In this document: in pieces, positions 6,864 through 62,782 of the stretch
How positions within the stretch are numbered: the first letter of the stretch is position 1
How the letters are laid out: the number at the start of each line of letters is the position of its first letter
NCBI GenBank assembly: GCA_965219495.1
Contig: OZ244777.1
Location: 690,837 to 754,836, forward strand
Direction of reading: 5' to 3'
Length of the DNA: 64,000 nt
Origin: Rhodobacterales bacterium
GTDB taxonomy: Bacteria; Pseudomonadota; Alphaproteobacteria; Rhodobacterales; CAZPXZ01
Position numbers and translations under genes: made by a program
Notes under the pieces: model-generated
What the model saw: the letters and a program-made list of their open reading frames with translations, nothing else
Database searches by the model: none
What the model was told of the DNA's origin: nothing

Positions 6864-7224
6864 GACACCCTGCCAGAGGTCAACCAAATGGTGAAGCGCG
6901 GCAGCGAGGGGCCGCGCAGCAAACTTCAGTTTCCTATGCGGGGTCAAAGGCCGAATGCCCAAGCTACCGGTGTCCAGCGCCGACCGCGGCCCCGGTCAAA
7001 CTGGGAATCAAGAGACCAGACACGCCAATGAAGAAACGACCTCGGGTACACCACCAAAGCAGGTTCGTCTCGGCCGCTACACACGCGCGGAACAATCCAC
7101 ATGTTCAATTCCTGTCAGCGCACCCGCAAGCGGGGGTGAAAACTGGGAAAGAAATCGGCGCCACCCTATGAACCCGTAGGCGGCCGGTTGACGCTGGCGT
7201 GCGCAAGGTCTACCAACAGCATCG

Positions 7225-7300
7225 GGGCGGTTAGCTCAGTCGGTAGAGCACAGTGTTCACATCGCTGGGGTCACTGGTTCGAATCCAGTACCGCCCACCA
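7225..7300 (+). tRNA. tRNA-Val (anticodon CAC)
   Basis: Hand-folded cloverleaf. Acceptor GGGCGGT pairs with ACCGCCC. D arm is GCTC-AGTCGGTA-GAGC. Anticodon arm is CAGTG-TTCACAT-CGCTG. T arm is ACTGG-TTCGAAT-CCAGT. The 3' CCA is encoded. Confidence 0.9.
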
Positions 7301-7756
7301 CCGTCCGCGGGGCAGTTTCGTCCGACCGGTGCGGAAAAACCGGAAGCGCGTCATTGGCTTTCGCTAGCAGCATTTGGACCAGAATGCGCCGAGAATTGAC
7401 GGGAAGGAAGTTCCGGCCTGCAGCTGCCGAAGATCAGTGGCCGGACGCACGTTTGCTGTGCCGAATTTTGCACGTTGCTGAAAAGTTGCATGTATCCCTT
7501 GCATTGGTACGTCCAACGGCACATTCCAAAATTGTAGTCGCGCTGCAATTTGGGAGGCTCTATGCATCTAAACGCCTGCCAACTTGCAAGGAGTGCAAAT
7601 TCGGACCCAGATTCTATTGCAATCATTTTTGGATCATTGCAATTGGCGTCCGCGCACATCCAACCACAGCAATCGACCGACAAGACCTTTCCGGCCCGGC
7701 ATTTCGTGCGTTCTTCCGCATTGCCGACCTTTGGGGACTCTCAGTGTCCGATTCAA

Positions 7757-8573
7757 AAGCGATTTCCCCCTAACCGGCTGCTCCACAAACTCTTACGCGT
7801 CGTCCGAGGCGCCGCACCAGAACCCGAATGGCGGCCCTCAGGACCCACGCCGTGGAGTTCTGGATGGTTCGCTTGAAATCCTTCGCCAGGCGTCGGCAGC
7901 GGTCCAGCCAGGCGAAGGTACTCTCGATCCCCCGACGTCGCGGTAGAACTGCAAAACCCTTGTTTCCCTTGGGCTTGGAAACAATGATCAGGTCGATATC
8001 GAGGCCGCAGTCGTGCAGCGCCTGCTCGAGCTTAGCGCCGCTGTAGCCCCCATCCGCGAACAGCGCCCGCAGCGTCGGGCAGCGTGCCGCCACCTTTTGC
8101 AGCAGGTCCGGTGCCTCACCCCGATCCTAGATACTCGCAGCATGCACGTACGCCGCCAGCGGGTTCCCTTCTGTGTCCACAACAAGGTGGCGTTTGCGCC
8201 TCTTGACTATTTCGCCGGCATTGTACCCGCACGGGTCCCCCGCTTCGGTGGTCTGGGCGCTCTGGCTGTAGATCGCTCCCGTTGTCGGCTCTTCCGCGCG
8301 GCCTGCATCTCGTCGCGCCGGGCACCGGGGAATGCACAAATTTCCTTAAGCAAGTCCCGCTTCGACCACGCGTAGAAGTAGTTCTGAACTGTCGCAAAGG
8401 GTGGAATATCCGTGGGTCGGGCAGGCCACTGGCAGCCCGTGCTGGCTCTGTACAGGATGGCGTTCAAGACTTCCCGAATGTCCGTGCTGCGTGGACGAAC
8501 CCGCGCAGTTGGCGGCGGCAACGACCAATCCGCATCCGTAAAATCAGACTCGTAACGAGCCAAGGGGGCGCTT
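7757..8573 (-). mobile_element. IS5-family (IS427/IS1031-group) insertion sequence, about 0.8 kb
   Basis: Imperfect terminal inverted repeats: AAGCGATTTCCCCCTAACCGGCTGC at 7757 onward, versus the reverse complement of the right end, AAGCGCCCCCTTGGCTCG, ending at 8573. They enclose the two-frame transposase. Confidence 0.75.
7770..8563 (-). pseudogene. IS5/IS427-group transposase with a premature TAG
   Basis: The frame A piece at 8207..8563 reads ILYRASTGCQWP...YFYAWSKRDLL. The frame B piece at 8127..8339 reads SQSAQTTE..GYNAGEIVKRRKRHLVVDTEGNPL. The piece at 7770..8093 reads LFADGGYSG...VLPRRRGIESTFAWLDRCRRLAKDF. The A/B shift may be the programmed frameshift of this group. The TAG at 8127-8129 sits where homologues have Gln (I-Q-D-R), so I call it a nonsense mutation. 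Confidence 0.75.
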
Positions 8574-8831
8574 ATGCAGGCAGCGGAGTAGCTTCATTCC
8601 AGGACATGTGCGTTCTTCATATCATGCCTGACAATTCATGGAAAATACCACATATCGAAGCCACTCGGAAACTTCAGGTCGAACTCTCAGGGTCTTGGCA
8701 AGACCAAAATTGTGCGTGAGTGGGGCTTTGAAGGGAGATCTGTCGGTACTCACGAGCACCCGCACGGTCGATACGCTCTGCTAGGCGCACGCAATCGTGT
8801 TGCCGCCTCTTTCTCACATCTCCTCGCAAGA

Positions 8832-8907
8832 TGGTGGAGCCGAGGGGAGTCGAACCCCTGACCTCTGCATTGCGAACGCAGCGCTCTCCCAACTGAGCTA
8901 CGGCCCC
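8832..8907 (-). tRNA. tRNA-Ala (anticodon CGC)
   Basis: The reverse complement is GGGGCCGTAGCTCAGTTGGGAGAGCGCTGCGTTCGCAATGCAGAGGTCAGGGGTTCGACTCCCCTCGGCTCCACCA. It has the G3:U70 alanine identity pair, the anticodon loop TTCGCAA, and an encoded CCA. Confidence 0.9.
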
Positions 8908-9124
8908 GGAGGCATTTCAAGCGGGGATCGAACCTATAGCCGGCGCGAACTTGGCATCTGCTCCTTGCCGAAAGTCGTTTAGCGCCGGTCTATTGTAATT
9001 GCAACGTCGCGGTGAGAACATACGCGAACCGCGGTTGCGCGCGGTCCGGCGACGCTACGGAAACCGGCGCGGAAAATGCGCCGCGATGGACTGCGCGCGA
9101 CGAACAACACTTGGAGAGACGCGT

Positions 9125-9778
9125 ATGCTGACGCTTGCCGAAGAGCTCGTCCTGCTGGTTCTGGATGATAAGGATGGCACGATGTTGCCGATTCCTCAGC
9201 GTTCATTCGACTTTGCACTTTCGGGCGCAGTGCTGATGGATCTGGCTCTTCGCCGCAAGATCGATACCGACCCAGAGAAGATTTGGATTTGCGATACCCA
9301 TCCTACCGGCGAGCCGTTTCTGGACGCCTATCTGTCTGAGTTGCAAATGGAGGACACGAAGTCCGATAGAATTGGGGAATGGATCGAGTTCTTGGCGCAT
9401 CAGCCAAGCCGGATTCAGGAGGCTGCGTTGGCACGGCTGGTCGCACGGGGTGTTTTGCGCCGGGAAGACCGGCGCTTCTTCTGGGTTTTCGAAACCCGCC
9501 GCTACCCCGTCATCGACGACAAAGAAGAGCGTGAAGTCAAGCTTCGCATCATGAGCGTATTGTTTAGCGAGGAAATTCCGGACCCGCGGGATGTTGCGCT
9601 CATTTGCCTCGTGGATGCATGCCATCTAGTCGAGGAAATTCTCGGCGCCCGGGAGGCGGCCTCTGTCCGGGGACGCATCGCGGTGGTTCGCAAGCTGGAC
9701 CTGATTGGTCAGGTAACCCAGTCCACGGTACGTGAAATTGAGCGTGCGGTCAGTCAGATTCAACCGTTCCTGCATTAG
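9125..9778 (+). CDS. GPP34/GOLPH3-family protein
   Basis: MLTLAEELVLLVLDDKDG...ALSGAVLMDLALRRKI...LARLVARGVL...LRIMSVLF...D.RDVALICLVDAC is the typical bacterial GPP34 pattern. The start is moved to ATG 9125 within the ORF 8999..9778. Confidence 0.65.
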   Translation: MLTLAEELVLLVLDDKDGTMLPIPQRSFDFALSGAVLMDLALRRKIDTDPEKIWICDTHPTGEPFLDAYLSELQMEDTKSDRIGEWIEFLAHQPSRIQEAALARLVARGVLRREDRRFFWVFETRRYPVIDDKEEREVKLRIMSVLFSEEIPDPRDVALICLVDACHLVEEILGAREAASVRGRIAVVRKLDLIGQVTQSTVREIERAVSQIQPFLH

Positions 9779-10476
9779 TCTTCCAGCACCTGCCGACGGG
9801 AGCCGGGCACGCCGTCCAATTCCCTCCTGACCGCGGCAAGAACGCCTTCGAAGGCCGCCTCCGTGAGTCGTCCCGTATTTGTGTTGTAACGGGAACAGTG
9901 ATAACTGTCGAAGAGCACGAAACGCGATAGCAGGTATCTCGCGCCATGGTGAAACGGAAAATCCCTTTGCCGGGCGCCAAGCGTTCGAACAAGACTCTCA
10001 TGCGCGGTGCGTCCGAGCGCAAGGAGCACGCGCAAGCGGCGCATCGACCGGATTTCGTTGCTCAAGAATTCCGCGCAGTTGCGAATCTCTTGTGCAATCG
10101 GCCGGTTTTGCGGAGGAACGCAACGGACAGCGTTGGTGATTGCGCAATCCGTCAGCGCTAGGCCATCATCGGCCCTGCGCGAATAGGTCCCCGTCGAGAA
10201 ACCGAACTTTTCGAGCGCTGGATAAAGAAGCTCCCCCGCGCCATCCCCGGTGAAGGGCCTCCCGGTGCGATTCGCGCCGTTGAGTCCGGGCGCAAGCCCA
10301 ACGATCAGGAGGCGGCCTTGAGCGTCCCCGAAGCTCGGGACCGGAGCGTTAAACCAATCCGGTTGCACGTGGCAGATTTCGTGGCGGAAGGACTTCAGTC
10401 GCTCGCAAAGCGCGCAATTTGCCTGGGGATTCCCACTTTCGAAGGGGAGGGAGCTAGTCAAGGCCGCCCGGGACAT
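9775..10476 (-). CDS. uracil-DNA glycosylase, family 5 (UdgB-like)
   Basis: GLAPGLNGANRTGRPFTGDGAG and NAVRCVPP...HCSRYNTNTG motifs. The start is set at MSRAALTS (ATG 10476); the upstream part of the ORF 9775..10920 has no homology-like features. Confidence 0.8.
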   Translation of the reverse strand: MSRAALTSSLPFESGNPQANCALCERLKSFRHEICHVQPDWFNAPVPSFGDAQGRLLIVGLAPGLNGANRTGRPFTGDGAGELLYPALEKFGFSTGTYSRRADDGLALTDCAITNAVRCVPPQNRPIAQEIRNCAEFLSNEIRSMRRLRVLLALGRTAHESLVRTLGARQRDFPFHHGARYLLSRFVLFDSYHCSRYNTNTGRLTEAAFEGVLAAVRRELDGVPGSRRQVLED

Positions 10477-10569
10477 GTCCTGCACATTCTTACTTGGTTC
10501 GCGCTTCTGGCGCGAATCGGTGTGGCGAAACTCACGCCATTCGTGTAGCGAGACGATAGAGGCGGAACG

Positions 10570-11163
10570 GTGTTCCCAAGAAAATCGAAGGACAAGTCCA
10601 TTTTGGCGGCTCACTCCTGTCTCGTTGCGCTCGGCGCAAACCTGCCCTCCTGCATCGGGCCTCCTCAAGCCACCCTTAGGGCTGCGCTGAGGCGCCTCAA
10701 GGGCCGTGGCGTTGTTCTTTTGGCGCGAAGCCGGTTCTACGCAAATCCCGCCTTGCCCCCTGGTTCCGGACCTGAGTTTGTCAACGGCGTCGCATTGCTG
10801 CGGACAAGCTTGTCCCCAGGCAAGACGCTTCGCGCATTGCAAGCGGTAGAAGCGAGTTTTGGACGCGGTCGACTCGACAGAGCCGGCGCCCGCCCTGCGG
10901 ATCTCGACTTGCTCGCCCACGGGAACCGTATCCTGCCGGGTCGGGACGCATGGCGCCGTGCGGTAACTCGCGAGAATCGTGGCGGGACAGGGCGTCGCCT
11001 CTTAATCGTTCCGCACCCGTCTATGCATCTCCGATCATTTGTTCTCATACCATTAGGTGAAATAGATGACAAATGGGTTCATCCAGTCCTTGGCGCCCGT
11101 ACCCGGGACTTGATCCGCGTTCTACCGCTTGCAAGCGTGGCAAGCATGGCGCCGGTCGAATGA
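10570..11163 (+). CDS. folK: 2-amino-4-hydroxy-6-hydroxymethyldihydropteridine diphosphokinase
   Basis: VALGANLPS...SRFYANPALPPGSGPEFVNGVALLRT...LQAVEASFGR...RPADLDLL...IVPHPSMHLRSFVLIPLGEI matches the HPPK pattern. The exact start is uncertain (GTG 10570). Confidence 0.8.
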   Translation: MFPRKSKDKSILAAHSCLVALGANLPSCIGPPQATLRAALRRLKGRGVVLLARSRFYANPALPPGSGPEFVNGVALLRTSLSPGKTLRALQAVEASFGRGRLDRAGARPADLDLLAHGNRILPGRDAWRRAVTRENRGGTGRRLLIVPHPSMHLRSFVLIPLGEIDDKWVHPVLGARTRDLIRVLPLASVASMAPVE

Positions 11164-11900
11164 GCAACCCACGCGGAAAACGAGCCTCCGGAATTCGCGA
11201 AGCCATGCATGTCGAGTCCTCTCCGGCCATCCCGCGCGACGCCGCAGCAATGGTGCTGCTTCGACGCGGCCGGAACGCGGAGGAGGTCTTGATGGGCGTG
11301 CGCGGACGCCGGGCGGCATTCATGCCGGGGAGGAGAGTGTTTCCTGGCGGATCCGTAGACCCTGTAGACTGCAGCCTCTCCACGCATCGCGAGCTTGCCT
11401 GGAAATGCCTGGAACGACTGCGAAAGGAAATCAAGGATCCGGCGCTCCCCGTGCCGCTCGCGCTCGCCGGCATTCGCGAATTGTATGAGGAATCCGGCCT
11501 CGCAGTCGGCGTCCCCTCGGCACGGCCGGTTGGCGGACCGGGAGTCCAGGGCACCTGGAAATCGTTCTACGCGGCGGGCCTAGAACCGGCGCTGGATCAG
11601 CTCCAATTCTTTTTCCGAGCCATCACCCCACCGGATTATCCGATGCGCTTCGATGCACGATTCTTTCTTGTTTCCGCCACGGCCGTGCACGGGAGCATTG
11701 ACGATCTGTCGAAGGGATCCGGCGAATTGCAAGATCTCAAGTGGCTCCCGGTCGCGGAAGCGATTGATCTTGGAGATTTGCCATGCATCACCCGGGTCGT
11801 GCTCCGGGAAGTGCGCGAGATCATTACATCCGGAAACTCCAATCGTCCAGTTCCGTTTTACGGCGGCGGACGCTTCACCGGTAAAGTGGAATATCTCTGA
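11160..11900 (+). CDS. NUDIX hydrolase
   Basis: The Nudix box reads FPGGSVDP...GIRELYEESGL. ATG 11160 overlaps the folK stop (ATGA), suggesting translational coupling. Confidence 0.75.
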   Translation: MSNPRGKRASGIREAMHVESSPAIPRDAAAMVLLRRGRNAEEVLMGVRGRRAAFMPGRRVFPGGSVDPVDCSLSTHRELAWKCLERLRKEIKDPALPVPLALAGIRELYEESGLAVGVPSARPVGGPGVQGTWKSFYAAGLEPALDQLQFFFRAITPPDYPMRFDARFFLVSATAVHGSIDDLSKGSGELQDLKWLPVAEAIDLGDLPCITRVVLREVREIITSGNSNRPVPFYGGGRFTGKVEYL

Positions 11901-15584: not shown

Positions 15585-16367
15585 GCATCAGGCACCCCAC
15601 AGTTCGGTACGGAGCCTTCCGCAGGTGCGTCGAGGTGAAGACTGACCCGGCCCTACCCTCGATCGGATACTGCGTTTGCTCCGTCCTTCGATGATGCCGC
15701 CGCCAAACTGATGGGGGTTTCCGCCACCGTGTGCGGAGCCATCGGCTGCAGCATCGCCACCTGTGCCCTGAGGCCCTCGCTCCAGCCGGGTTGTGTTGTC
15801 CCGGCCATCAACGCTTATCGGCCTCATCCGCCAGTCTGGAGATCTCCGTTTCATTTCCCGGCACAGCCGGTTATAGACGCGGTCTTTGACATTCAAGGAT
15901 CATCCTGTCTGATCCCCAGACCTTCCGGACTTTCGCTGCTGTACTTTCGAGTATTGCCGCCTTCAATATGCCGGAAGCCCCGGTGCGCGCTCCTCAGTTC
16001 TTCCGCACCGACACTGGCCATCGGGTAGAAAGGAGACCCTTGGCAACTCCAATTACCCCGCAAATCAGCTTCATGCAGGAAGTCCTTTTCGACGCTTGAT
16101 CCGTTCACTCTCGTTACGGCCCTACTCTTTGCTCGCCCCCCGGGCTGATCAGACTCAAGCGGAACCATCTCCACTCCGTCTCCCAGGACTTTTACTTCCG
16201 GGCTTCCAGGTCACCGGGTCACCCCGTGCGCCTGCCGGATATGACTACGGCGCCAAACTGAGAATTGCGCCGGTGGGACTTGCACCCACTAGTACAGCAG
16301 CTAGTCTCGCTGCACCCTTTCCGCCGGACTTGCACCGGCTATCCACACCAGAGTTAGCCTGGCGTAC

Positions 16368-34030: not shown

Positions 34031-34669
34031 CACCACATCGTGTTATTACATGGAGTCCAATGTCAGGAGGAAACGACGTCGCTTCCGTAGAAAACCGTGA
34101 AACCTCAATCGAATAGGGTCGTGCTGACAGTTATTTCCTAAACGAAGTTCCGTCTAACGCGGTCCCGCCGCCATGCAGGCCCGGCGACGGGCTTGATGCT
34201 TTTGTTCAGCCGGCGCTCCGGTTCCGGCTCCTCGCCCATGAGCAAGTGCAGGTTCTCCCAGGTTTTCTGGCGACCCTTTCCGTGGCTCTGCGCCGGCCTT
34301 CGACACCGGACGACCCTTGACGCCTCGCCGGTGGTGTCGCTGCCGGTGCTGCCCCCAAGTGGTTGAAGGTTGAAAAGGCGTCATCATTGTGCATGTCGAG
34401 GCTGGTTATCGCCTTTCATCTCCCGCTGTCTACGCTTCACAACGCACGTCGCCATGCGCCATGCAAGACTCGCTCCCGGCTGGCGGGCTGCGCCGTTGCC
34501 GAGCGGGCGTCGGTCCCGCTGGGTCGCGTTGAATGGATTCAGCTCATGTCATCCCCCTCCCCAGGACTTATCCTGGCGCAATCAACTATTGCAAGTAATC
34601 CCCAATGGAAAAGCCGGCGTCGCACCGGTACTTGTCAAACACATCGATGGCGGAACCGTTGCGCCGCGG

Positions 34670-56431: not shown

Positions 56432-57522
56432 CTTGCTGTTCCCTTGTTGTATCGATGTCGTACAAAAGGCATTCCCGTCACGTGGCAGGCGATACGCTTT
56501 CCCCGAACTTCCGCGTCAATGGTTGTGCCGGGTTCTCCGTAAGCGTGCGAAACATATCCCATTGCGACAGGCGCCCGAAGGCTTGGCGCGAACCCTCCAG
56601 ACGTAACATGCCCGATTACCTTATCGTTCGGCCCATAAAGGAGGGCGCCGGGACGAACCGGCACGCGACCCGCCGGCGTCATTCCCACGCGAATCCTCCC
56701 AGGTTCCTCCTTGCTGGTCGCCCTCAGCGCCTCTGCGCCGATGAACTCCCCGGATTCCAGTATTCTTCGAGGAACCGTCCACATGAGCCCTGCTTCAACC
56801 GGATTGGTCTCCTCCGTCAAGTCCTGACCGTACAAACATAGACCGGCTTCAAGCCGAAGCGTATCTCTTGCGCCCAACCCAATCGGCTTGAGCAGTGGAT
56901 TCGCAAGAATGGAATTAACAAAATTCGCCGCTTCGCTGCGAGGCAGGGCAAGTTCAAATCCGTCCTCTCCCGAATAACCTGTCCGACTGATCACCCGGTC
57001 GCCATCGAGTCGTGAGGCCGTCATGAAACGCAGTGTGCCGGCTTCGGGAACTTTGGAACTGAGGACTTCTTCAGCGCGGGGCCCTTGTACGGCGATCATG
57101 GCCCGTCCGGGAACAACGATTTCGATGTCAAGGTCATTTGAGTTCGAGCACATTCTCGCAAGGTCGGCTTCCTTTCGGGCTGCATTGCAGATGATCAAGT
57201 AACCATCCTCGCTGAGGCGCATAACGACGGCATCGTCCAGGATCCCGGCATCATCGTTGAGGAAGAACGAATACTTGGAGCTCCCTACGATCATGCCTGC
57301 GGCATCGATGGGGCAAAGTCGCGCCAGCAGCTTGGCCGAATCGGGTCCCCGGAATTCCACCTGCCCCATATGGGATACATCAAAGAACCCGGCAGAATCG
57401 CGAACCTGAAGGTGTTCCGCGATAATTCCCGCAGGATAATTCAGCGGCAGTCGGTACCCGGCGAACGGCACCATTTTTGCGTCTAGTCGCCTGTGAAGGT
57501 CGAAAAGCGGTGTCTTTTGCAT
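56428..57522 (-). CDS. gcvT: glycine cleavage system aminomethyltransferase T
   Basis: MQKTPLFDLH..GAKMVPFAGY.LPLNY, FDVSHMG, TGYSGEDGFE. An alternative TTG start lies at 57537. It overlaps gcvH by 4 nt. Confidence 0.9.
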   Translation of the reverse strand: MQKTPLFDLHRRLDAKMVPFAGYRLPLNYPAGIIAEHLQVRDSAGFFDVSHMGQVEFRGPDSAKLLARLCPIDAAGMIVGSSKYSFFLNDDAGILDDAVVMRLSEDGYLIICNAARKEADLARMCSNSNDLDIEIVVPGRAMIAVQGPRAEEVLSSKVPEAGTLRFMTASRLDGDRVISRTGYSGEDGFELALPRSEAANFVNSILANPLLKPIGLGARDTLRLEAGLCLYGQDLTEETNPVEAGLMWTVPRRILESGEFIGAEALRATSKEEPGRIRVGMTPAGRVPVRPGALLYGPNDKVIGHVTSGGFAPSLRAPVAMGYVSHAYGEPGTTIDAEVRGKRIACHVTGMPFVRHRYNKGTAR

Positions 57523-58272
57523 TATCGGTAGAAGCAATTGAGAAGAACCGGAGAGTTAACGGCGAACTCGATTCCAGTCAATCCCTTCGCGGCTTCTAGC
57601 AGTTCGCAGCGCCCCAGCGACGCGGCCTAGAATCAACCGGGGAAAAGCCGTAAGGAGTATCTCGCATGCTGCAAGCAGCAGGCTTGGTCGGCTGACTGAA
57701 ACTGAATGAAATTCGACGACCTCTCCAGAACAACGATAATGGCGTTCCCCTGATCTGCGAAGAATGACGGTCAGACGAACTAAAAAGAGATAGATTTGCA
57801 GTTCGATTGACGGTCAGGAATTCTTACCGTCGGGTCGGCGCGAGAATCAGATCCAGAACGATAACTTGACCAAACCCGAGAGTCGCAACAGAGCCGAACT
57901 TCCCCGCACGCAACCAGATGACACCTGCTCTGCACGATCAACATCCTTCAGTTCAGAGCCCGACCTACAACACGAGACTTCCGTTGCGGATTCCGTCAAA
58001 GGCACATACCATTGCGCCGAGACGATTGCGCGCCATGGCTGACCGAGGTCCCCTGGAATTCCGCGAGCGGGGCAGGTTCGATCGCGGATCGGCCGAAACA
58101 GGGCGCGGAGCGTACGACCTGCGCGTCACCGTTCCCGCAACTTAAACGTATGGCGAGGCGTCGCAACATCTAGACCGAAATTCTTCTCGGTCAGGCTCAT
58201 GGAACGGTCTATCCTGTCGGATCCGAGCTACATACAGGCGGCTGCAAACATTTCAAAGAAGAAAGGCGAATC

Positions 58273-58713
58273 GTGACTTCAGAAAGCCTGGACATTTCTT
58301 GCACTAACGACCTGCAGGAACTCGCGTTTGTTGCGGAAAGAATTGACGAGTTCTGTGAAGCGCACGACATCGGTTCAGAAATCGCGTTTGCCGTCAACCT
58401 GTCTATCGATGAACTGCTGACCAACACCATCAGTTATGGATACGCGGATGACGAACCACACCAGATCGACATTTCGGTTCGCCTGGACAGCAGCGACATG
58501 ATTATCGAGATCGCCGATGACGGCTTGCCATTTGAATTGTCCAGCGTCGCAAAACCGAATACCGACGCCGATCTCGAAGACCGCCCGGTAGGCGGGCTCG
58601 GCGTCTTCCTAGTGTACGAGATGATGGATAGCGTCGAATATCGGCGCAACGAGGATCGAAACGTCGTAACCCTGATCAAGAAGGCGGCGAACGCGAGAAT
58701 CGCTGGGACATGA
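58273..58713 (+). CDS. anti-sigma regulatory factor-type Ser/Thr kinase (RsbW/SpoIIAB-like, HATPase_c_2)
   Basis: AVNLSIDELLTNTISYGY (N box), IEIADDGLPF (G1), DRPVGGLGVFLVYEMMD (G2). GTG start at 58273. Confidence 0.75.
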   Translation: MTSESLDISCTNDLQELAFVAERIDEFCEAHDIGSEIAFAVNLSIDELLTNTISYGYADDEPHQIDISVRLDSSDMIIEIADDGLPFELSSVAKPNTDADLEDRPVGGLGVFLVYEMMDSVEYRRNEDRNVVTLIKKAANARIAGT

Positions 58714-58924
58714 TCGAATATTCCGTGTTCAAGACCGGGGAAAAACTCGGGTCACGCCGTCTTGGGGCGAGAGTGATCTGGATAAAGGACCACTTGATCC
58801 GGCCCAGTCACTCGCCGTATTGTGCCAAACCCTGAAAGGATTTATCGTTTTGTCTCGCCAAACCGGCGAATGAAGCCCCGTGTCAACAGTACCGGACGGA
58901 GCGAAGAGGGGTCCAACCAAGGTG

Positions 58925-60328
58925 ATGATCTTCAATATGAACGTGAAGGGCCGCAATCTTCCGGATCGTGGTGCTCAATTCCACAGCTTTATCGGCCCAG
59001 GCAGCATTGCCGCCGTTCTCGCGCTGGTTTGCTTGCCTTCAGAGGCGCATGCCGCCTTGAACAATGAAACGCAGTTCGTCCTGAACAGCTTTTCGTTCTT
59101 GATCTGGGGCGCGCTGGTAATGTGGATGTGCGCGGGCTTCACGATGCTCGAAGCCGGATCGGTGCGGACGAAAAATGCTTCGGTCATCTGCCTCAAGAAT
59201 ATTGGCCTCTATTCCATTGCCGGCCTGGCTTTCTACTTCATCGGCTACAACATCATGTATGTCGGTGTTGAAGAGGGAGGTTGGTTCGGTTCGGTCCAGT
59301 TCCTGTATGGGTCCTCCAGCGACGAGATCGCGCTCTTGCGTGGCAACGAAGAGGCCAGTTCCGCCGTTATCGAGAAGGGCTTTTCCACGATGTCGGATTG
59401 GTTCTTTCAGATGGTGTTTGTGGCAACTACCGCGTCGATCGTATCCGGAACGTTGGCCGAGCGTGTGAAACTCTGGTCATTCTTTTTGTTCATCTTGCTT
59501 CTGACGGCGGTAATTTACCCGGTAATTGGGTCTTGGACCTGGGGCGGCGGTTGGCTTTCCGTCATGGGATTCCAGGATTTCGCAGGATCAACAATTGTTC
59601 ATTCCACCGGTGGTTGGGCAGCGCTTGCAGGCGCGCTGATAGTAGGGGCGCGAAAGGGCAAGTTTCGTGAAGACGGTAGCGTCAAGTCGACGCCGCCTTC
59701 GAATGTTCCGGCCGTAACACTAGGGGTCTTTATCCTGTGGCTGGGTTGGTTCGGATTCAACGGCGGTTCGCAACTCGCATTGGGCGGAGCATTCGATGCC
59801 GTTGCGATCAGCAATATCCTCGCAAACACCAACCTCGCAGCTGCTGCCGGGGTGATGACTGCCATAATACTTTCACGTCCGATCTTGGGTCGCGTAGACT
59901 TGCTCGCCGGCCTGAACGGCGCGATTGCGGGACTTGTTGCCATTACTGCAGGACCGGATATTGTCGAACACTATTGGGCTGTTATCATTGGAGCAATCGG
60001 CGGGGGCATATGTGTCCTTGGACTTAGAGTCCTGGACTATTTGAAAATTGATGATGTGGTTGGGGCCATCCCAGCGCATCTGTTCGCCGGCATATGGGGG
60101 ACAATCGCAGTTTCAATCGCTGCCGGGGGGAATTTCCTCGTTCAGCTTCTCGGAGTCCTCGCAATCGGTGCTTTTGTATTCGCGACTTCACTGATAATTT
60201 GGTTCATCATTTCGAGGACCATGGGAGCACGAATATCGGCGGTTCACGAGGAATTGGGGCAGGATGTTGCGGAACTGGGTATCGAGGCCTACCCGGAATT
60301 TGTACTGATGCCGGAGGTGGACGATTGA
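58925..60328 (+). CDS. amt: ammonium transporter (Amt family)
   Basis: LIWGALVMWMCAGFTMLEAGSVRTKN, FFQMVFVATTASIVSGTLAER, GSTIVHSTGGWAALAGALIVGAR, GWFGFNGGS, AIPAHLFAGIWG. An N-terminal signal-like segment is present. The start is uncertain (58925 or 58937). Confidence 0.9.
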   Translation: MIFNMNVKGRNLPDRGAQFHSFIGPGSIAAVLALVCLPSEAHAALNNETQFVLNSFSFLIWGALVMWMCAGFTMLEAGSVRTKNASVICLKNIGLYSIAGLAFYFIGYNIMYVGVEEGGWFGSVQFLYGSSSDEIALLRGNEEASSAVIEKGFSTMSDWFFQMVFVATTASIVSGTLAERVKLWSFFLFILLLTAVIYPVIGSWTWGGGWLSVMGFQDFAGSTIVHSTGGWAALAGALIVGARKGKFREDGSVKSTPPSNVPAVTLGVFILWLGWFGFNGGSQLALGGAFDAVAISNILANTNLAAAAGVMTAIILSRPILGRVDLLAGLNGAIAGLVAITAGPDIVEHYWAVIIGAIGGGICVLGLRVLDYLKIDDVVGAIPAHLFAGIWGTIAVSIAAGGNFLVQLLGVLAIGAFVFATSLIIWFIISRTMGARISAVHEELGQDVAELGIEAYPEFVLMPEVDD

Positions 60329-60419
60329 GCAACAAGCGGCATTGACCACCGGGAAGCATGGCCAATCGGCGAAGTTCGGCGTATCATGGCCACAGTCTTG
60401 AGCATTGGAGACGCAGGAA

Positions 60420-60758
60420 ATGGATTTGAAAACTGAACGGCAGGACGGTGTGCTATCCGCTCGGGTTGGGGGACGGATTGACGGCTCGAACGTGGCCGAA
60501 TTCGAAGAGGCAATCAGAAACGCTATTGGGCAAGAAGATCGAGCTCTGATCATGGACTTCGAAGAGCTTGTCTACATTAGCAGTGCGGGCCTTCGCGCCA
60601 TTCTGATGACCGCCAAGAGTCTTTCTGGACGAGGTGCGAAGTTCGCCCTTTGCTCTCTCTCTCAGCAAATCCGTAAAGTTTTTGAAATCAGTGGATTCGA
60701 TAAATTCATTGCGATCCATCCCAACCAAGTGGAAGCACTCGCTTCGTTCGAAAAATAG
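60420..60758 (+). CDS. STAS-domain anti-sigma-factor antagonist (RsbV/SpoIIAA-like)
   Basis: LIMDFEELVYISSAGLRAILMTAK contains the conserved phosphorylatable Ser context. ...RKVFEISGFDKFIAIHP. ATG 60420 follows GGAG. Confidence 0.8.
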   Translation: MDLKTERQDGVLSARVGGRIDGSNVAEFEEAIRNAIGQEDRALIMDFEELVYISSAGLRAILMTAKSLSGRGAKFALCSLSQQIRKVFEISGFDKFIAIHPNQVEALASFEK

Positions 60759-61894: not shown

Positions 61895-62782
61895 CTACTT
61901 GCCGACGGTGTTTTCATTTCGAGTGTCTCCACGCCCGGCAATAGCTGCGGCGGTCAGATCGTCGAATTTGGTAGCGCTTGCAATTCTTGCGAGATCATCA
62001 CCTTCGATGCAAACACCCCAGCGCATTGCGAGCGCCTCATATCGGGGCAACCGCCAGTCCAGCAGTCGCTCAAAGGCAAAAACCAGGAAATCTGATGGGT
62101 CCACAGCGCACTCCTCCCGGTCACCCAGATACGCCTTCCAAATTTTGTCAAGAAAATTCTCATGAAAGTACATGGGTTTCGGTGCCTTGCGAAATCGATC
62201 GATCAGAGTGCTCCGATGCTGCTCGGAAACACGTATGTAGATGGGCAGCATATGTCGCGAGACATGCGTAAATACCGGATCCTCCGGATCCAGATGGTCT
62301 GCAAGTTCGCATATGCTGCCACTCGAATCGCAGACGAAATGTTCGTATCCATAAACCCTCCGGGCGCGCTCGATAAATTCTTCCGCGTCCTTCGTGGCGG
62401 CTAGCTCGGCGGTCGCGTGTTTGCGTTGCCTCCGACGATACTCTTCGAATGTAAGTCCCCCCTTCGCCGGATCTCCGGGCGCCCCGACGTATTTTGAAAG
62501 GGGCACAAGGTTCTCAAACGCAAGTTTCGACCGCACGACAATGGAGTCCGAGCGGAGGAGATCTCGCAGCAACGGCACCTGCATCGCCGCAAGCTTCACC
62601 GTATCGGTTATGCGTTCGCCCAAATAGCGCGTTCCGATGCGATAATCGACCGAATAGTGGTACCAGTTCGCGGCTTCGCGGAGCAGAGCGGCCGCGCGGG
62701 TCTTGCCCACTCCGGACATCCCGAAGAGTAAGACAGATTTGCGCTTGGAAGCGCGATACGCTTCGCCCGACTCGTAGAGCAT
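61895..62782 (-). CDS. P-loop NTPase of unknown function
   Basis: The Walker A motif is LFGMSGVGKT. 295 aa, 6 nt upstream of metA, and apparently co-transcribed with it. Confidence 0.55.
   Translation of the reverse strand: MLYESGEAYRASKRKSVLLFGMSGVGKTRAAALLREAANWYHYSVDYRIGTRYLGERITDTVKLAAMQVPLLRDLLRSDSIVVRSKLAFENLVPLSKYVGAPGDPAKGGLTFEEYRRRQRKHATAELAATKDAEEFIERARRVYGYEHFVCDSSGSICELADHLDPEDPVFTHVSRHMLPIYIRVSEQHRSTLIDRFRKAPKPMYFHENFLDKIWKAYLGDREECAVDPSDFLVFAFERLLDWRLPRYEALAMRWGVCIEGDDLARIASATKFDDLTAAAIAGRGDTRNENTVGK

Follow-up and report, generated by a model that had tools for sequence, protein, structure and literature searches.

The 64,000-nucleotide stretch of DNA analyzed here (hereafter the window; contig OZ244777.1, positions 690,837 to 754,836, assembly GCA_965219495.1, from a Rhodobacterales bacterium) carries three genes in the same orientation that encode an RsbW/SpoIIAB-like serine kinase, an Amt ammonium transporter, and a single-domain STAS protein of the anti-sigma-factor-antagonist family (Table 1). 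Independent gene calling on the 1.03-Mb source contig returned identical genes of 146, 467, and 112 amino acids (aa), and together with the coordinates of the open reading frames (ORFs) and the Pfam/NCBIfam matches it confirmed the three ORFs, their domains, and their order as given in an initial annotation of this DNA. That annotation had also remarked on a missing glnK. Indeed, no PII/GlnK, PP2C, binding-protein, or sensor-kinase homologue was detected across the window, nor any sigma-like ORF; of the GlnK, AmtB, RsbW, SigB, and RpoE sequences used as queries, GlnK and AmtB performed as expected. As detailed below, the coupling of amt with the STAS gene is real, conserved, and, as far as we searched the literature, undescribed.

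Table 1. Features of the kinase-amt-STAS locus, in coordinates of the window
Feature	Coordinates	Strand	Evidence or remark
RsbW/SpoIIAB-like serine kinase (HATPase_c_2), 146 aa	58273..58713	+	PF13581 E 5.9e-25, full length
Kinase-Amt spacer, 211 bp	58714..58924	+	no recognizable regulatory element seen
Amt ammonium transporter, 467 aa	58925..60328	+	PF00909 E 9.6e-96; TIGR03644 above cutoff
Cytoplasmic C-terminal tail of Amt, clade specific, AYPEFVLMPEVDD	60287..60325	+	translation; clade comparison
Amt-STAS spacer, 91 bp, with Shine-Dalgarno-like GGAGAC before the STAS ATG	60329..60419	+	
Single-domain STAS protein, anti-sigma-antagonist family, 112 aa	60420..60758	+	PF01740 E 1.6e-20; TIGR00377
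YISSAGLR motif of STAS	60573-60596	+	translation
Ser55 codon, putative phosphorylated serine of Y-I-S-S-A-G-L-R	60582..60584	+	translation; family alignment

GlnK is commonly cotranscribed with amtB and inhibits AmtB transport rapidly and reversibly (PMC3870248). To place the window Amt among its relatives, which number in the thousands and of which the best 120 are 75 to 100% identical to it, we sampled one genome per species and obtained 80 loci (closest Amt, 84% identity). These were classified by profile searches of all ORFs, and a neighbor-joining tree divided them into two clades: the window clade, with 52 loci mostly 62 to 84% identical to the window Amt, and a sister clade of 28 loci at 51 to 62% identity, mostly from free-living marine Alphaproteobacteria. 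The glnK gene was found directly upstream of amt in 19 of the 28 sister-clade loci versus none of the 52 window-clade loci (Fisher p = 6e-12). A STAS gene of the same subfamily was present within ~6.5 kb of amt in 13 of 52 window-clade loci versus 1 of 28 sister-clade loci (p = 0.016), and the STAS-bearing loci of the window clade usually also carried an RsbW-like kinase. The exception in the sister clade, L062, has no glnK, and its amt is preceded by a STAS gene and two PP2C genes. Across the Amt tree, glnK and STAS neighbors were mutually exclusive. An all-versus-all clustering of the longest ORFs near amt was confounded by spurious high-GC ORFs; it revealed no other strongly recurrent neighbor and was replaced by profile searches and gene-called contigs. 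By record title, the window clade spans ~8 phyla at 62 to 84% Amt identity (Pseudomonadota, Chloroflexota, Acidobacteriota, Gemmatimonadota, Actinomycetota, Nitrospirota, Spirochaetota, and Binatia), and names of metagenome-assembled genomes such as Poriferisocius, Spongiisociaceae, and Palauibacter hint at sponge or coral hosts, a habitat assignment based on these names and on one paper on Palauibacterales. The clade looks as if it had spread horizontally and extensively within host-associated communities.

The linkage between amt and STAS was found in at least five gene orders, with unrelated flanks, in Pseudomonadota, Acidobacteriota, Gemmatimonadota, and Chloroflexota, the sampling of loci being partly STAS anchored. 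A chance adjacency, which the initial annotation had envisaged should the arrangement prove not to be conserved in relatives, does not account for this recurrence in many lineages and gene orders: the adjacency of amt and STAS is not due to chance. A metagenome scan with the STAS family gave 80 loci, 21 of which had both a close STAS (45 to 67% identity) and enough flanking sequence. Six of these 21 have amt immediately upstream, and one, L087, reproduces the exact kinase-Amt-STAS order. Loci with more distant STAS proteins (<45%) had ordinary adjacent kinase/STAS pairs without Amt. When closer STAS relatives were looked up (69 to 80% identity), amt was directly upstream in 4 of 6 cases (L168-170, L171, L172, and L174).

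The position of the kinase proved far less stable. It directly adjoins STAS in relatives L014, L024, L037, L048, and L054, is solo in others, and is separated from STAS by amt in the window. Amt-STAS pairs without a nearby kinase occur in L001, L006, L044, L088, and L089. A minimal kinase-Amt-STAS(-STAS) form is shared by the window, L003, L087, and L174, and outside the window the kinase-Amt-STAS order was seen in only four loci, namely, these three relatives and L172, where the kinase is divergent. The closest kinase homologues (54 to 62% identity) were solo or beside a HAMP-PP2C gene in all three cases sampled. Because kinase-anchored contexts thus lacked linkage to amt, we moved the emphasis from a kinase/STAS "sandwich" around the transporter, as initially described, to the Amt-STAS pair. 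The sandwich is present in the window and its Amt-STAS part is conserved, but the sandwich as a whole is not the conserved unit, given its occurrence in four other loci, kinase homologues without Amt, and a transposase in place of the kinase in L184. The conserved unit is amt followed by STAS, with a variable kinase position.

Several loci record rearrangement of the module. L184 (1-3339), from a near-identical strain whose STAS is 100% identical, keeps Amt-STAS-metA and has the transposase at the kinase position. L171 (2556-7339), from the same sample as the window, is a module in the course of being dismantled by insertion sequence (IS) elements, in which STAS is still intact but Amt is truncated to residues 214-459, along with a kinase, a 50-aa SpoIIE fragment, and integrases. 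The STAS relatives of highest identity among those looked up (78 to 79%; L163-L167, ~7001-7339) are solo, flanked by several transposase families, and preceded by 0.9 to 1.6 kb of DNA without called genes. No Amt pseudogene remnant was found upstream of the solo STAS genes of L163-167, L084, and L085; L171 alone has a truncated Amt.

The STAS protein scored well above the cutoffs of PF01740 (73.2 bits; cutoff, 22.6) and of the anti-sigma-factor antagonist model TIGR00377 (79 bits; cutoff, 53.45), and the profile of its family matched SpoIIAA structures (6e-15). Nearly all family members are 112 to 113 aa long, at 64 to 82% identity. Ser55 is invariant among 44 members and is a putative phosphorylatable serine, which we take to be equivalent to Ser58 of SpoIIAA and Ser56 of RsbV. 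Nearly every STAS protein retains the YISSAGLR motif, whether its locus is Amt adjacent (also where no kinase is nearby), module-only, or solo. In the STAS tree, the window protein falls in a group whose 13 sampled members include 10 that are encoded directly downstream of amt. A second, paralogous group is always Amt adjacent and comprises the extra copies of the kinase-Amt-STAS-STAS loci as well as L003 and L044. Pairwise identities of Amt and of the adjacent STAS correlate (Spearman 0.62, for pairs that are not independent), and the Amt-adjacent STAS proteins have diverged to 43 to 82% identity yet hold their position. The correlation fits inheritance of the two genes as a unit over substantial divergence. 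Tandem STAS paralogues were also observed: two follow amt in L087 (2280-3168), L174 (7001-7711), and L175 (108-818), three lie in a row in L104 (4956-6263), and one lies on each side of amt in L089. All the tandem copies keep the serine of YISSAGLR, and the second copies group separately in the STAS tree.

These data bear on whether the linkage could be hitch-hiking without function, i.e., one ancestral Amt-STAS junction that spread on a mobile Amt cassette, with partner-switching modules lying nearby by chance in genomes rich in such genes. The transfer-prone nature of the Amt clade, the abundance of IS elements at the loci, and the co-inheritance of Amt and its adjacent STAS all agree with such a history. 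However, the position was kept while the STAS sequences diverged, and the two genes have stayed close in no fewer than five rearranged architectures from four phyla, for which one frozen junction cannot account. In addition, the enrichment of STAS over the sister clade is significant, and the whole 64-kb window contains a single STAS gene. We thus regard hitch-hiking as very improbable.

The kinase matched PF13581 with 88.2 bits (cutoff, 27.4) and failed at the equivalog level, scoring 42.6 bits against RsbW NF003144 (cutoff, 145) and 32.8 bits against SpoIIAB TIGR01925 (cutoff, 135). In the family alignment, the N-box residues E47 and N51, D82 of the G1 box, and G107-G108-L109-G110 of the G2 box are invariant, as in RsbW, and the kinase looks catalytically competent by these residues. 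Its profile independently matched SpoIIAB in the PDB (~1e-11); a match to the PDB entry of RsbW (1e-37) was discarded as circular, since Bacillus subtilis RsbW was included in the alignment. By sequence, the two proteins thus fall within the SpoIIAA/RsbV (STAS) and RsbW/SpoIIAB (kinase) superfamilies. With a STAS protein bearing a conserved serine and a HATPase_c_2 kinase with intact N and G boxes, the locus resembles the RsbV/RsbW and SpoIIAA/SpoIIAB pairs. It differs from them in that the sampled loci have no sigma factor in cis, the kinase falls far below the equivalog cutoffs, and the sole nonsignaling gene encodes a transporter. At L179-L181 (~7001-11651), the genes next to a kinase homologue (54% identity) encode SBP_bac_3 binding proteins and a HAMP-SpoIIE phosphatase of 649 aa, which may represent the same switch with another kind of input.

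In relatives, the genes of the window are part of a larger set. L168-170, L106, and L172 contain a full codirectional cluster that encodes Amt, STAS, a receiver-PP2C (389 to 402 aa; Response_reg plus SpoIIE), the kinase, a Peripla_BP_6 protein that is weakly LivJ/UrtA-like, and a histidine kinase of ~740 aa with a TorS-like periplasmic sensor, HAMP, HisKA, and HATPase_c. The receiver-PP2C was present in L168-170, L172, L106, L097, L092, L095, and L101, and it matched the Pseudomonas-type RssB model NF045505 with an E value of 1.5e-35, far below the cutoff of that model. The location of amt relative to these genes varies: it is downstream of the histidine kinase gene in L040 and L012, convergent with a histidine kinase-binding protein-kinase-PP2C unit in L097 and L098, after divergent cores in L014, L037, and L054 (Gemmatimonadota), and convergent with STAS/kinase/PP2C in L020 (Dehalococcoidia) and in L024, L048, and L050 (Vicinamibacterales). 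No close-module locus sampled contained a sigma-factor gene, which leaves Amt as the only nonsignaling protein of the conserved cluster. Since relatives add the receiver-PP2C, the Peripla_BP_6 protein, and the TorS-like histidine kinase, the window is, judging from gene content, a reduced form of a larger, sigma-less partner-switching system, and any phosphatase or periplasmic input that the organism possesses is encoded outside it. Accordingly, the initial statement that no PP2C is encoded nearby holds for the locus but not for the system. The companion statement that no sigma factor lies nearby was borne out in the window, in every close-module locus, and on the source contig, where no sigma70 or SpoIIE family match was found within 10 kb on either side.

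Partner switches of the Bacillus cereus RsbK-RsbY type employ a receiver-PP2C phosphatase, and the system in relatives resembles them in having a receiver-PP2C driven by a sensor histidine kinase. It also resembles HsbR-HsbA and RssB-RssC of Pseudomonas (PMC6482189; PA3346/PA3347, PMC8256260), which are likewise Gram negative and combine a receiver-PP2C with a serine-phosphorylated STAS, a phosphorelay input, and an output that is not a classically co-encoded sigma factor. Unlike in HsbR, where kinase and phosphatase are fused, the two are separate here; moreover, the input here consists of a Peripla_BP_6 protein and a TorS-like kinase, and the Pseudomonas systems have no association with Amt. 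The histidine kinase aligns with the N-terminal sensor and HAMP of TorS (TIGR02956 E 2.7e-49, below cutoff; weak Pfam TorS_sensor_domain match) and is encoded beside a periplasmic binding protein, as in TorT-TorS. It departs from that system in that the binding protein is Peripla_BP_6 and not TorT, the kinase is without hybrid receiver or Hpt, the partner is a receiver-PP2C and not TorR, and these genes are absent from the window.

An alternative is that amt and a partner-switching module responsive to nitrogen or nutrients share no more than transcription or location, that the real target of the module is a distant one (RpoS stability, for instance, as with RssB/RssC and HsbR/HsbA of Pseudomonas), and that neither STAS nor the kinase contacts Amt. 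The receiver-PP2C indeed has the Pseudomonas-type RssB architecture, and the connected partner switches of Pseudomonas control RpoS (PMC6482189). The LivJ/UrtA-like binding protein would fit a nitrogen-compound signal that co-regulates ammonium uptake, the five-gene signaling module is often found without any Amt, and kinase and STAS genes are often dispersed as solo genes, so targets need not be encoded nearby. Such co-expression leaves unexplained, however, why STAS specifically stays at the 3' end of amt when the other module genes are absent or elsewhere, and why the linkage is confined to a clade without adjacent glnK; furthermore, none of the sampled loci has a sigma factor nearby. We consider this explanation unlikely.

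Two further observations concern regulators near these modules. In L090 (751-996) and L091 (4261-4569), a divergent gene for a PII-like protein (Pfam P-II E 1.4e-10; 40% identity to GlnK of E. coli; T-loop region altered) precedes a same-family STAS gene by ~390 bp, in the place taken by amt elsewhere, and a histidine kinase-binding protein-kinase unit is convergent downstream. In L168-L170 (1147-2397), a GAF-GAF-ANTAR RNA-binding regulator, possibly nitrogen related, is encoded ~3 kb upstream of the full cluster.

The window Amt matched PF00909 over its full length (321 bits; cutoff, 23.2) and exceeded the cutoff of NCBIfam TIGR03644, "probable ammonium transporter, marine subtype" (523.2 versus 514 bits). 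The pore and recruitment residues of AmtB (F107, W148, D160, H168, F215, S219, and H318) are all kept (7/7) in the window Amt and in 15 relatives. By its family model it is a predicted ammonium transporter. Pore-residue conservation was dropped as a test of transporter versus sensor, as it is nondiscriminating because the proven sensor Ks-Amt5 retains the same residues. No covalent signaling fusion was found: the 467-aa protein contains PF00909 only and ends 13 residues into its tail, and PF00909 is the sole domain in all 120 Amt homologues listed. Every sampled member of the clade without PII ends in AYPEF-[VIM][LV][ML][PV][ED] followed by an acidic run, versus AYPEF-GxGSQ or a shorter end in the PII-linked clade.

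An arrangement with Amt as the input of the switch also has to be weighed. Amt would then be an ammonium sensor or transceptor whose state sequesters or releases STAS or the kinase, the switch relaying the signal to an unlinked sigma factor, enzyme, or protease adaptor. Natural Amt-HAMP-phosphatase fusions of SAR11 carry IPR001932, which we take to be the PPM/PP2C-type domain. Enzymes of this class dephosphorylate STAS proteins, and in SAR11 Amt-GI5 an Amt is fused to the kind of phosphatase on which partner switches rely. A sensor role was suggested by the authors who described these fusions (PMC11796062), and there are precedents in Ks-Amt5 with its histidine kinase (PMC5764959) and in Sd-Amt1 with its HAMP-diguanylate cyclase (PMC11152129). 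The minimal kinase-Amt-STAS cassette of the window has no other input device, and the comparative-genomic linkage fits sensing as well as gating. On the other hand, the full six-gene clusters already own an input in the form of binding protein, histidine kinase, and receiver; were Amt also an input, the cluster would therefore hold no output. The Amt is, moreover, a stand-alone protein that passes the cutoff of a transporter model and has intact pore residues, which Ks-Amt5 keeps as well. We judge a sensor role for Amt to be quite unlikely.

The locus resembles Ks-Amt5, Sd-Amt1 (Amt-HAMP-GGDEF), and SAR11 Amt-GI5 (Amt-HAMP-PPM) in that Amt is tied to cytoplasmic signaling with no glnK nearby (PMC5764959, PMC11152129, PMC11796062). 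Those proteins are covalent fusions, whereas here a 467-aa Amt stands beside separate partner genes; in the literature searched, no STAS protein or serine kinase was reported with sensor Amts. SLC26/SulP proteins, too, functionally link a STAS fold with a membrane transporter (PMC8256260). These are, however, anion transporters with a fused STAS outside a kinase/phosphatase switch, whereas the present locus has an Amt and a separate, SpoIIAA-type STAS. As for GlnK-AmtB, the common points are a small cytoplasmic protein encoded beside amt and its control by covalent modification, which is putative here. The neighbor at our locus has a STAS fold instead of being a PII trimer, its gene is downstream and not upstream of amt, and an RsbW-like kinase would modify it by phosphorylating a serine, whereas GlnK is uridylylated; binding of STAS to Amt is only inferred. 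The locus is thus neither a GlnK-AmtB pair, nor a sensor-Amt fusion, nor an SLC26-STAS transporter.

We propose that STAS acts directly on Amt as a phospho-switchable counterpart of GlnK and gates ammonium entry, a reading based on sequence comparisons to which we assign a probability of about 0.38. According to this model, the kinase would use ATP to phosphorylate STAS on Ser55, and a PP2C would remove the phosphate, driven in relatives by the periplasmic binding protein and the TorS-like kinase via the receiver domain. One phospho-form of STAS would bind the Amt trimer from the cytoplasmic side, perhaps at the tail AYPEFVLMPE(D/E)n, and thereby gate ammonium entry. Either phospho-form could be the binder, and binding could close or open the pore. 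We favor gating because Amt is the sole nonsignaling gene product of a cluster that already has a dedicated input, because the STAS gene specifically stays attached to amt, and because a brake is presumed necessary for Amts and the usual adjacent one is missing from this clade. The expectation that a GlnK-less Amt needs a substitute derives from the literature on inhibition of AmtB by GlnK.

Several results weigh against gating by STAS. First, no STAS gene lies within ~6 kb of amt in 39 of the 52 loci of the PII-less clade, and the clade-specific Amt tail occurs with or without an adjacent module. The tail marks the clade and not adjacency to the module, and we therefore take this hydrophobic-acidic segment only as a candidate docking site inferred from sequence, not as specific evidence for STAS. 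Second, the partners of the switch are also found apart from Amt: neither Amt nor STAS was detected within 7 kb of the three sampled kinase homologues, the same five signaling genes occur without Amt nearby in L091-L096, L100, L101, and L104, and the remaining 2 of the 6 STAS look-ups were solo genes among IS elements and transposases. Third, we know of no classical partner-switching system with a membrane-transporter target.

A broader version of the gating model is that STAS is a true functional replacement of GlnK, with an RsbW-like kinase reading ATP or energy status and a receiver-PP2C placed under a periplasmic sensor of nitrogen compounds, and that the system spread horizontally among marine, apparently host-associated bacteria belonging to several phyla. 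We find this extended version possible, albeit somewhat doubtful. SAR11 has been reported to lack PII proteins altogether (PMC3870248). GlnK control of ammonium entry is regarded as near-universal in prokaryotes and as energetically necessary, and a large marine Amt clade has no adjacent glnK; the Amt-STAS coupling is a directly testable candidate for the restraint of Amts in this PII-less clade. If gating by STAS were true, partner switching, which is known for sigma factors and a few enzymes, would extend to membrane transport, and this would be the first partner-switching system with a membrane-transporter output. It would also tie in with the unexplained Amt-PP2C fusions of SAR11 and would have implications for nitrogen exchange within dense communities on hosts, the apparent habitat of these genomes. 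Full-text searches retrieved no paper linking Amt with STAS or with a partner-switching module, and the literature on STAS-only proteins, Amt transporters, sensor Amts, and SAR11 nitrogen regulation made no mention of an Amt-STAS link. With no describing paper found, the initial remark that the arrangement was not characterized still applies. What comes closest in print is the Amt-PPM fusion of SAR11 (PMC11796062).

We also inspected the spacers for expression signals. A promoter/terminator scan found no terminator-like site in the 211-bp or the 91-bp gap, and a sigma70 promoter scan of both gaps gave nothing informative. Sigma54/NtrC promoters before the kinase or amt were rejected, as the window had 26 matches versus ~30 expected, none of them usefully placed. 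The kinase-Amt spacer contains neither a sigma54-like nor a sigma70-like site, and its folding energy is ordinary (z = -0.09). A 41-aa ORF was called within this spacer; it cannot be conserved in L174, because the kinase-Amt gap is 6 bp there. The Amt-STAS gap measures 49 to 186 bp across 13 loci of the same order, and its sequence is unconserved except for a purine-rich, ribosome-binding-like block before the ATG. Alternative start codons are GTG 58880 for Amt and TTG 60405 for STAS.

The three genes are flanked upstream by gcvT-gcvH-gcvP on the minus strand and downstream by a convergent metA. A 735-bp noncoding gap (57538-58272) separates the divergent gcvT and kinase genes. Glycine riboswitches are often present at gcvT operons; the Rfam search of 57400-58950 returned neither a glycine riboswitch nor any other match, whether at the gathering threshold or at E<=1. 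Elsewhere in the window, group II intron domains were matched on the minus strand at 34294-34512 (RF02005, 92.8 bits) and 16109-16291 (RF02003, 54.8 bits), consistent with the mobile-element-rich genomes of the related loci. Directly after metA, a 295-aa ORF on the minus strand (61895-62782) belongs to no Pfam/NCBIfam family and has only a weak AAA_16 P-loop match; it stays beside metA in L184 and L185.

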